A DNA stretch of 64,000 nt from a bacterium (GTDB taxonomy: Bacteria > JAHJDO01). Positions 16,182-16,480 of the stretch are shown here, in pieces. The stretch spans positions 109,992 through 173,991 of the forward strand of contig JAUSPT010000032.1 of assembly GCA_030652805.1 (NCBI GenBank), given 5' to 3'. Under the pieces are notes generated by a model that had not been told where the DNA came from, searched no databases, and was given only the letters and a program-made list of their open reading frames with translations. A program made the position numbers and the translations under genes. Each line of letters starts with the position of its first letter. Position 1 is the first letter of the stretch.

Positions 16182-16480
16182 TAATGAAAATATTTCATAC
16201 TCTCTAGGATTACACCTGCAGCAGTGACCTTGAATTCGTTTATGAGTAAAAGGCTCAAGCCGTAAAGCTCGATAGCGTGAATAAGGCCTGCTGCAGGCGT
16301 ATTTGTTCTCGTGCGGCTCTTGACCGCGAATAGTTGATTGCGACCTTTGAGAGGTTTTGAGAATATGAAATACTACATTAAAAAGCTGTGAAATTGTTAT
16401 GTGAAAGTTTTTAAATACGCATAGAAAATCATAGTTAAACCCTTTTTTTGACATTTGAACTTTGATTTTTGACATTTATT
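16182..16480 (+). ncRNA. candidate structured non-coding RNA at IS 3' end (bridge-RNA-like, as described for IS110/IS1111 elements)
   Basis: GC-enriched relative to surroundings. A perfect 10-bp long-range stem pairs CCTGCAGCAG (16216-16225) with CTGCTGCAGG (16289-16298) around a 63-nt loop. No ORF of any length is present. Confidence 0.3.

Follow-up and report, generated by a model that had tools for sequence, protein, structure and literature searches.

The closest described relatives of the locus analysed here are insertion sequences of the IS1111 group, in which a seekRNA, or bridge RNA, is known for ISEc11, ISPa11, ISKpn4 and ISPst6 (PMC11187229) and has been predicted for 93% of elements (PMC11208160). 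Subterminal inverted repeats together with a long 3' end make up the IS1111-type layout (PMC11187229), and the RNA lies in that long 3' non-coding end, after the gene of a DEDD transposase. [quoted passage not shown] In the IS110 group, IS621 has its bridge RNA 5' of the gene, with guides placed in internal loops, a second region that recognises the joined ends of the element, and a CT core (PMC11208160, PMC11208158), and ISEc21 is guided by its RNA to a conserved coding motif that is repeated in many genes, namely conserved codons of IS3-family transposase genes (PMC11187229).

We analysed a 64-kb stretch of bacterial DNA, called the window throughout, and found in it an insertion sequence of 1425 bp which, compared by described features, shares with the IS1111 group the position of the RNA, the subterminal inverted repeats, the order of the two target guides and the concentration of differences between close relatives in the target-matching bases. 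Its 3' non-coding end very probably encodes a bridge (seek) RNA of about 190 nt that carries both target and donor guides. [quoted passage not shown] With IS621 the family has in common the fold of the enzyme, the placement of guides in internal loops and a second region that would recognise the element's joined ends, but the RNA of IS621 lies on the other side of its gene, its core is CT where the window family has AA, and its right-donor guide is clear where none was found here; the order of the guides is moreover the reverse of that in IS621 and ISEc21. The family resembles ISEc21 in that a repeated coding motif is the target, yet the motif and the branch of the family are different, and ISEc21 comes without a report of keeping the frame of its target open.

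The transposase gene and the limits of the element

The product of the gene that precedes the RNA (Table 1) matches the Pfam families DEDD_Tnp_IS110 (PF01548) and Transposase_20 (PF02371), and reaches 243 bits, against a cut-off of 140, with the NCBIfam model NF033542 for IS110 family RNA-guided transposases. By structure it is related to the IS621 transposase (8wt6, E 1e-19), and its serine motif FAGLTPRVFQSG aligns with FAGLTPRRYESG of IS621; the only solved relatives are IS621 and ISCro4, and the alignment spans only the C-terminal half of the window protein. Across 30 relatives D10, E61, D99, D102, G265, L266 and P268 are invariant and S273 is nearly so, and the protein carries both the RuvC-like DEDD N-terminal part and the C-terminal G(L)xPxxxxSG serine motif of the IS110 family, here as G265-L266-x-P268...S273. 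An initial annotation had assigned the gene to this family, and the profile matches bear it out. The element is present as a single copy, no further copies being found within the 64-kb window.

Table 1. Positions in the window of the element, its genes, ends and candidate guides
Feature	Position	Strand	Remarks
Whole insertion sequence	15015-16439	+	1425 bp, right-hand core AA (16438-16439) included
Left subterminal inverted repeat ATGTATTTTCTGTGC	15018-15032	+	3 nt inside the left end (ACC)
IS110-family (DEDD plus Ser) RNA-guided transposase gene	15093-16181	+	362 aa; Pfam and NCBIfam
Candidate bridge/seek RNA	16188-16375	+	extent is that of the covariance-model match; R1, 232 bits
Outer closing stem	16192-16204, pairs with 16359-16372	+	helix 1; compensatory changes in 12/12 pairs
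Long stem of stem-loop 1	16211-16232, pairs with 16282-16301	+	contains the 10-bp helix of the initial annotation
Internal loop, 5' strand (AAUUCGUUUA)	16233-16242	+	candidate right-target guide; 16234-16238 hypervariable
Internal loop, 3' strand (AUAGCGUGAA)	16272-16281	+	candidate left-target guide AGCGUGAA at 16274-16281
Stem-loop 2 hairpin (UGCGG...CCGCG)	16312-16328	+	helix 7; 91% paired, 3 pairs compensatory
Single-stranded linker	after stem-loop 2	+	carries AUAG-N-UGA
Candidate donor guide AUAGUUGA	16330-16337	+	same sense as the right end of the element
Small third hairpin	16343-16355	+	
Right end of the element	16419-16439	+	repeat GCATAGAAAATCAT 16419-16432, donor arm ATAGTTA 16431-16437, core AA 16438-16439
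Open frame, 622 codons	14607-16475	-	from the ORF list; N_methyl and T2SSG (Pfam) in the C-terminal part

The boundaries were set from the junctions, compared with those of copies elsewhere (L084 and L085, 95-97% identical and at other sites, and L001, which with L002 and L003 represents an 81% relative) and of about 70 family members. The anatomy is common to every copy. A left flank that ends in A[GA]NGTG is followed by the shared AA and by the left end (in the window, ACCATGTA...); at the far side stand the right end CATAGNT[GA], the AA once more and a variable right flank. In the window the two copies of the AA core lie at 15013-15014 and 16438-16439. An orthologue with an empty site (L164/L165, GspG 90% identical) reads uninterrupted, ATG TCA AAA AAA GGG TTT ACT CTG, which supports this placement and rules out our first boundary model, a CC core with the element at 15018-16442. 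Right flanks directly after the AA begin with any base (AGCAC in L085, GGC in L009, CTT in L086, TAT in L057), and the AA core was chosen over CC because it alone explains flanks that open with A, G, C or T, and because it alone fits the GGG glycine codon common to the right junction of the window and the empty-site orthologue. The direct repeat AAACC was considered as a target duplication and rejected, since the host gene would then fall out of frame.

The sequence at 16440-16475 is host DNA, namely the ribosome-binding-site side and the first codons of an interrupted gspG-like gene on the minus strand. The end of the element, which the initial annotation had put at about 16480, has therefore to be moved to 16439; the outcome which it had named as fatal to its own proposal, that the region is host DNA, holds for 16440-16480 only, and 16182-16439 lies inside the element. 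At the two ends, 15018-15032 is the reverse complement of 16419-16432 at 13 of 14 bases, with one mismatch and one 1-nt gap, and these repeats lie 3 nt (left) and 7 nt (right) inside the ends of the element. Equivalent inverted repeats occur in relatives (for example ATGTAGGGGCC paired with GGCCCCTACAT), with perfect repeats of 11 bp, so that the subterminal repeats of 7-17 bp that mark the IS1111 group are present. The non-coding ends measure 78 nt upstream of the transposase gene and 258 nt downstream; the short 5' end, long 3' end and IS1111-like arrangement that had been read from the sequence at the outset are thus retained.

On two metagenome contigs, L005 (about 1600-1640) and L022 (about 1080-1110), a right end runs into a left end through a single AA (CATAGTTG-AA-ACCATGT...), as would be expected of a circle junction or of tandem copies. 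A second, partial copy of the end (CATAGTT...) stands about 45-87 nt past the right end in L001 (5350-5450), L002, L003 and L085 (2845-2900); in L001 it is followed by an apparent second start of a pilin gene, and the first flank (AGCAC...) fits the variable guide of L084 better than the guide of its own copy. In L105 (2460-3360), a tandem duplication of 487 bp comprises the end of the transposase gene, the RNA and the right end, and gives two matches to the RNA model.

Structure and conservation of the RNA

The initial annotation had drawn attention to the region after the transposase gene for its GC enrichment and for a perfect helix of 10 bp. The enrichment is confirmed, with 49-52% GC at 16200-16350 compared with 24-37% around it, and the helix exists, one base away from where it had been placed, at 16215-16224/16288-16297. 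It forms part of two long-range arms, 16211-16224 and 16288-16301, which are 93% complementary over 14 nt. The region folds much more stably than shuffled sequences, with z = -5.7 for 16182-16441 and z = -5.9 for the first stem-loop.

A covariance model of 188 positions, R1, was built from four copies. On the + strand, immediately behind the stop codon of the transposase gene, it has matches in 83 of 98 first sources and in 22 of 66 remaining loci (about 105 loci), and in the window the matched segment lies 7 nt after that codon. At about 50% protein identity the matches reach E-values down to 1e-19, and the RNA is conserved to about 37% identity; below about 35% there is essentially none, the single match being that in L155 at E 0.28. 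Covariation was assessed on an alignment of 48 sequences, 45 of them distinct rows, with 55 pairs. Paired cells made up 87.4%, against 64.4% in shuffled alignments and 34-42% in slid controls, pairs with compensatory changes numbered 45 of the 55, against 39.5 and 22-31 respectively, and the covariation score was 0.512, against 0.176 in shuffled alignments (none of 500 shuffles as high) and 0.055-0.101 in slid controls. At the paired positions G.U cells exceed A.C cells, 276 to 76, which places the RNA on the + strand, so that a conserved secondary structure with covariation is found on the strand of the transposase gene. The comparison of folds among homologous copies which had been proposed in advance as a check thus came out in favour of a structured RNA.

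The overall fold consists of an outer stem that encloses three hairpins. In helix 3, the long stem of stem-loop 1, pairing reaches 93% and 15 of the 16 pairs show changes on both sides; between the window and L001, for example, CA is replaced by TG on one side of the stem and TG by CA on the other. Stem-loop 1 also has an internal loop of 10x10 nt and a distal hairpin. A scan of Rfam 15, at the gathering score and at E up to 10, returned no relevant match, and Rfam may hold no IS1111-type model. A promoter scan found no convincing promoter of the RNA's own, and one terminator-like hairpin was called, at 16286-16298. The RNA would be made in the direction of the transposase gene, and probably be cut from the transposase transcript.

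Candidate guides for the target and for the ends of the element

The 10x10 internal loop of stem-loop 1 is the likely target loop. We found that its 3' strand carries A[GA]NGUGAA in all family RNAs, in the same sense as the left flank A[GA]NGTG-AA, and that in the window AGCGUGAA is identical to the left flank AGAGTGAA (15007-15014) at 7 of 8 positions. Guide and flank agree at position 2 in 50 of 64 cases, compared with 42.5 in within-clade shuffles (p 0.004), and at position 3 in 29 of 64, compared with 18.7 (p 0.0002). Having the same sequence as the left flank plus core, this guide would pair with the bottom strand, and it is nearly invariant in the family because the target motif is nearly invariant.

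The opposite, 5' strand of the loop behaves differently. All five positions of 16234-16238 differ among the window, L084 and L085, which are 95-97% identical, compared with 13 of the 183 other positions, as would be expected of a reprogrammable guide. The variable bases are followed by UU, with which the strand ends, and complementarity that runs from this UU into the right flank has a mean of 1.51 nt, compared with 0.96 nt in within-clade shuffles (0 of 5000 as high). The excess is significant across the family (p < 0.0002) yet weak on average, at 1.5 nt beyond the core, and many of the flanks come from short metagenome contigs that are possibly chimeric across the repeated element. A scoring of the variable strand in a fixed register was abandoned, and a register-free run from any UU adopted, because the outcome of the former depended on the anchor. 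Individual loci show complementarity of 5-7 nt beyond UU, as in L119 (ACCGGUUU with AAACCGGT), L097 (UCGGUUU with AAACCGA) and L091 (ACGGUUU with AAACCGT). The target-matching segments thus comprise a left arm plus core of 8 nt in all members and a right arm that is weak but significant.

In the window copy itself the right flank is barely matched (AAUUCG-UU vs AA-CCCTTT), and the two strands of the loop can pair with each other over 4 bp (CGUU with AGCG). Several identical RNAs sit at sites with different right flanks, and the guide of L084 (GUGCU-UU) is a better fit to the right flank of L085, a copy on the same contig, than to the flank of L084 itself; from this mismatch, the RNAs could act in trans between copies. 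A comparison of loops and flanks had been suggested by the initial annotation for about 15030-15045 and 16480-16490. The relevant flanks are instead 15007-15014 and 16440-16450, and there the idea holds well for the left loop and poorly for the right flank of the window.

For the donor, the linker after stem-loop 2 has AUAG-N-UGA where the right end of the element has ATAG-N-T[GA]AA, and the base N is identical in 86 of 86 loci, being A in 36, C in 35, T in 14 and G in 1. The left end has no such counterpart: a guide for it, the right donor arm, was not found family-wide. The same-sense likeness of 16300-16315 to the left inverted repeat was not significant across the family (p 0.085), nor were local alignments, antisense or same-sense, of the linker between stem-loops 1 and 2 with the left end. 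UACAU (16374-16378), with UGCAU in L001-L003, was also considered as a left-end guide and set aside, its matches not being general. By analogy with IS621 and ISEc11, we infer that the RNA would bind the transposase, pair with DNA and direct strand exchange, which would take place at the shared AA.

Insertion in prepilin-type leaders and the open reverse strand

The window copy interrupts a gspG-like pseudopilin gene on the minus strand, with gspF at 16487-17698 and the rest of gspG at 14607-15014. In all family members the insertion site is the Gly|Phe codon pair of pilin-like genes that marks prepilin-peptidase cleavage (GFTLIEL), the transposase clade being always antisense in the N-terminal GFTL[IV]ELLVV of a pilin-like, DUF1559 or LamG gene (flanks can be seen, for example, in L097 at about 580-620 and in L019 at about 400-440). 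Read on the opposite strand, the left flank encodes the prepilin-type motif G/A-F-T-L-I/V-E-L-L-V-V in every case, with A[GA]NGTG-AA as the reverse complement of the codons Phe-Thr-Leu (TTC ACN CTN). The AA core supplies the TT of the Phe(+1) codon, which immediately follows the Gly/Ala(-1) codon, so that the exchange point would coincide with the prepilin-peptidase cleavage site. On the other side, the right flank read in reverse complement gives the codon that precedes Phe and a short basic leader, such as MRVQTRQA-F, MIRNDCSRG-F or, for the window copy, MSKIKVQMSKKG-F, and the right target arm would correspond to that codon plus a few further bases. Before insertion the target in the window read ATG TCA AAA AAA GGG|TTC ACT CTG, and the G-F junction is rebuilt by the left end of the element, whose ACC, GCC or GGC restores the Gly/Ala(-1) codon. 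The carriers are Planctomycetota, Verrucomicrobiota and Omnitrophota-like bacteria, and cultured ones exist, such as Bythopirellula polymerisocia Pla144 (locus L091). The gsp operon of the window has two further, unoccupied prepilin-type sites on the minus strand, RMRKG-FTLLEL at 13806 and MREKG-FTFIEL at 14589, of which the first reads GGG TTC ACA, close to the occupied site. No earlier account that joins IS110 with prepilin, or DUF1559 with an insertion sequence, was found in the searchable literature.

The initial annotation had described the 3' end as free of ORFs, which is right for the + strand alone; the minus strand of the region forms part of the frame of 622 codons. This frame passes from the host start codons (16475, 16454) through MSKKG-F and 475 codons of the element, ending ...KIHG, into FTLIEL and the rest of GspG, and orthologues start MSNVKCQMSKKGFTLIEL. 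In the window copy, at 40% GC, the in-phase reverse frame has 0 stops in 475 codons, compared with 24 and 54 in the other two reverse frames. Its codons coincide with those of the transposase, and the transposase gene has no TTA, CTA or TCA codon at all, compared with 72 in 1292 codons of neighbouring host genes; distant IS110-family relatives from AT-rich genomes, taken as a control, have 10-25 of them. The RNA-coding end of 258 nt is likewise without a stop in the in-phase reverse frame (p 0.004 by shuffling). Across 70 distinct copies, the length of the element is divisible by 3 in 46 and the in-phase reverse frame is fully stop-free in 44, at many lengths from 1398 to 1650 bp, and the 3' ends of these 70 contain 26 stops in phase, compared with 227 and 270 in the other reverse frames. 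In the stop-free copies the length of the 3' end, with about 22 distinct values, is divisible by 3 in every one. Of 50 in-frame copies, 45 have a host frame that crosses the element and continues into ...H/I-G|F-T-L-I/V-E-L-L-V-V-I.

A sub-clade with transposases about 52% identical (L004-L010 and L086) has the same RNA and the same target motif without a stop-free reverse frame, showing 6-34 reverse-frame stops and 14-21 TTA, CTA or TCA codons, which means that the property was gained or lost within the family. In another sub-clade (L051, L057, L060) the element length is not a multiple of three, and the left end, AAC ATG CCA|TTC ACN, would give an in-frame start downstream (M-P-F-T-L...). 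Judged from codons and lengths, the open frame on the minus strand is not accidental: the avoidance of stops and the lengths divisible by 3 argue for selection that holds the host reading frame open through the whole element, the RNA gene included.

This frame bears on the question of what the 3' end is for. Were 16182-16439 conserved for a reverse-strand protein, the RNA structure being incidental, one would expect the open frame, and the 3' end divisible by 3 in all stop-free copies is coding-like. But neither Pfam nor a database of 5.8 billion protein sequences contains a match to the translation, the paired columns change in a compensatory manner, with G.U tolerated only on the + strand, and the most conserved stretches are unpaired guide motifs, not codons, all of which makes such a protein a highly unlikely explanation. 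The constraint on the RNA and that on the reverse frame are compatible, and both seem to act.

It could also be argued that the region contains only protein-binding sites and a 3' untranslated region or terminator, the end repeats being sites for the transposase, as proteins do bind subterminal repeats in other transposons, the donor guide repeats the element end in direct orientation, and a terminator-like hairpin was called. We regard this as very improbable, since it leaves unexplained both the compensatory changes in 45 of 55 pairs with their strand-specific excess of G.U, and a loop segment that copies the target, not the element, and covaries with it; the enzyme family is, besides, known as RNA-guided. 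A regulatory role of the RNA in transposase expression, as attenuator, antisense target or stability element and not as guide, would suit an RNA that lies so close to the stop codon, is probably co-transcribed and has no convincing promoter of its own, but offers no reason why its loops should copy and covary with the target and with the end of the element, and we attach very little weight to it. The conserved structure, the covariation and the matches to flanks and ends support the guide, or bridge, RNA that the initial annotation had proposed 3' of the transposase gene.

As to the reverse strand, the simplest reading is that the insert is possibly translated as an oversized leader and then cut off, which would leave a normal mature protein; on an alternative reading, continued translation may merely prevent polarity on the downstream gsp genes. 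Following the former, removal of the insert as a leader, we hypothesise, tentatively and with slightly less than even confidence, that the family has evolved to hide in prepilin-type leaders. The guide RNA would place the element between the Gly/Ala(-1) and Phe(+1) codons and the left end would rebuild the ...H/I-G|F-T-L-I/V-E-L junction. Translation of the host gene would then run across the whole element, the reverse of the transposase and guide-RNA genes included, and the host prepilin peptidase would cut away an insert of 470-550 residues, releasing a normal mature pilin or pseudopilin. Rickettsia palindromic elements are also inserted in frame in coding sequence, and there too the final protein could stay intact. 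Inteins, group I and II introns and IStrons (PMC4227781, PMC3073962) likewise lie within coding sequence where the final protein could stay intact; unlike in inteins and introns, removal here would rely on a host maturation protease acting at the regenerated G|F and not on self-splicing of RNA or protein. We found no earlier description of in-frame or translated-through insertion sequences in the searchable literature, and, as far as can be told, the combination of a pilin-leader target with a design that is in frame and free of stops is new.

The guide RNA itself is one more member of a class described in 2024, and its value is that of a compact system of the IS1111 type in an unusual lineage, with Omnitrophota-like, Planctomycetota and Verrucomicrobiota hosts, in which the logic of guiding can be read from about 100 natural variants: a fixed left guide of 8 nt, a short right guide that changes fast, and a donor guide that covaries. 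The larger point is the apparent adaptation to the target, by insertion at a protease site, regeneration of that site, and 1.4-1.65 kb kept open in the host frame although mutation pushes strongly towards AT. Should the element indeed be translated through and the insert be removed by the peptidase, a protein gene, an RNA structure and a reverse-strand frame would all constrain the same stretch of DNA, and the family would offer a protein-level counterpart of introns and inteins that uses the host's maturation protease. A mechanism of this kind for sparing the host would be new among DNA transposons, and would explain the persistence of such elements in multi-copy pilin-like gene families.
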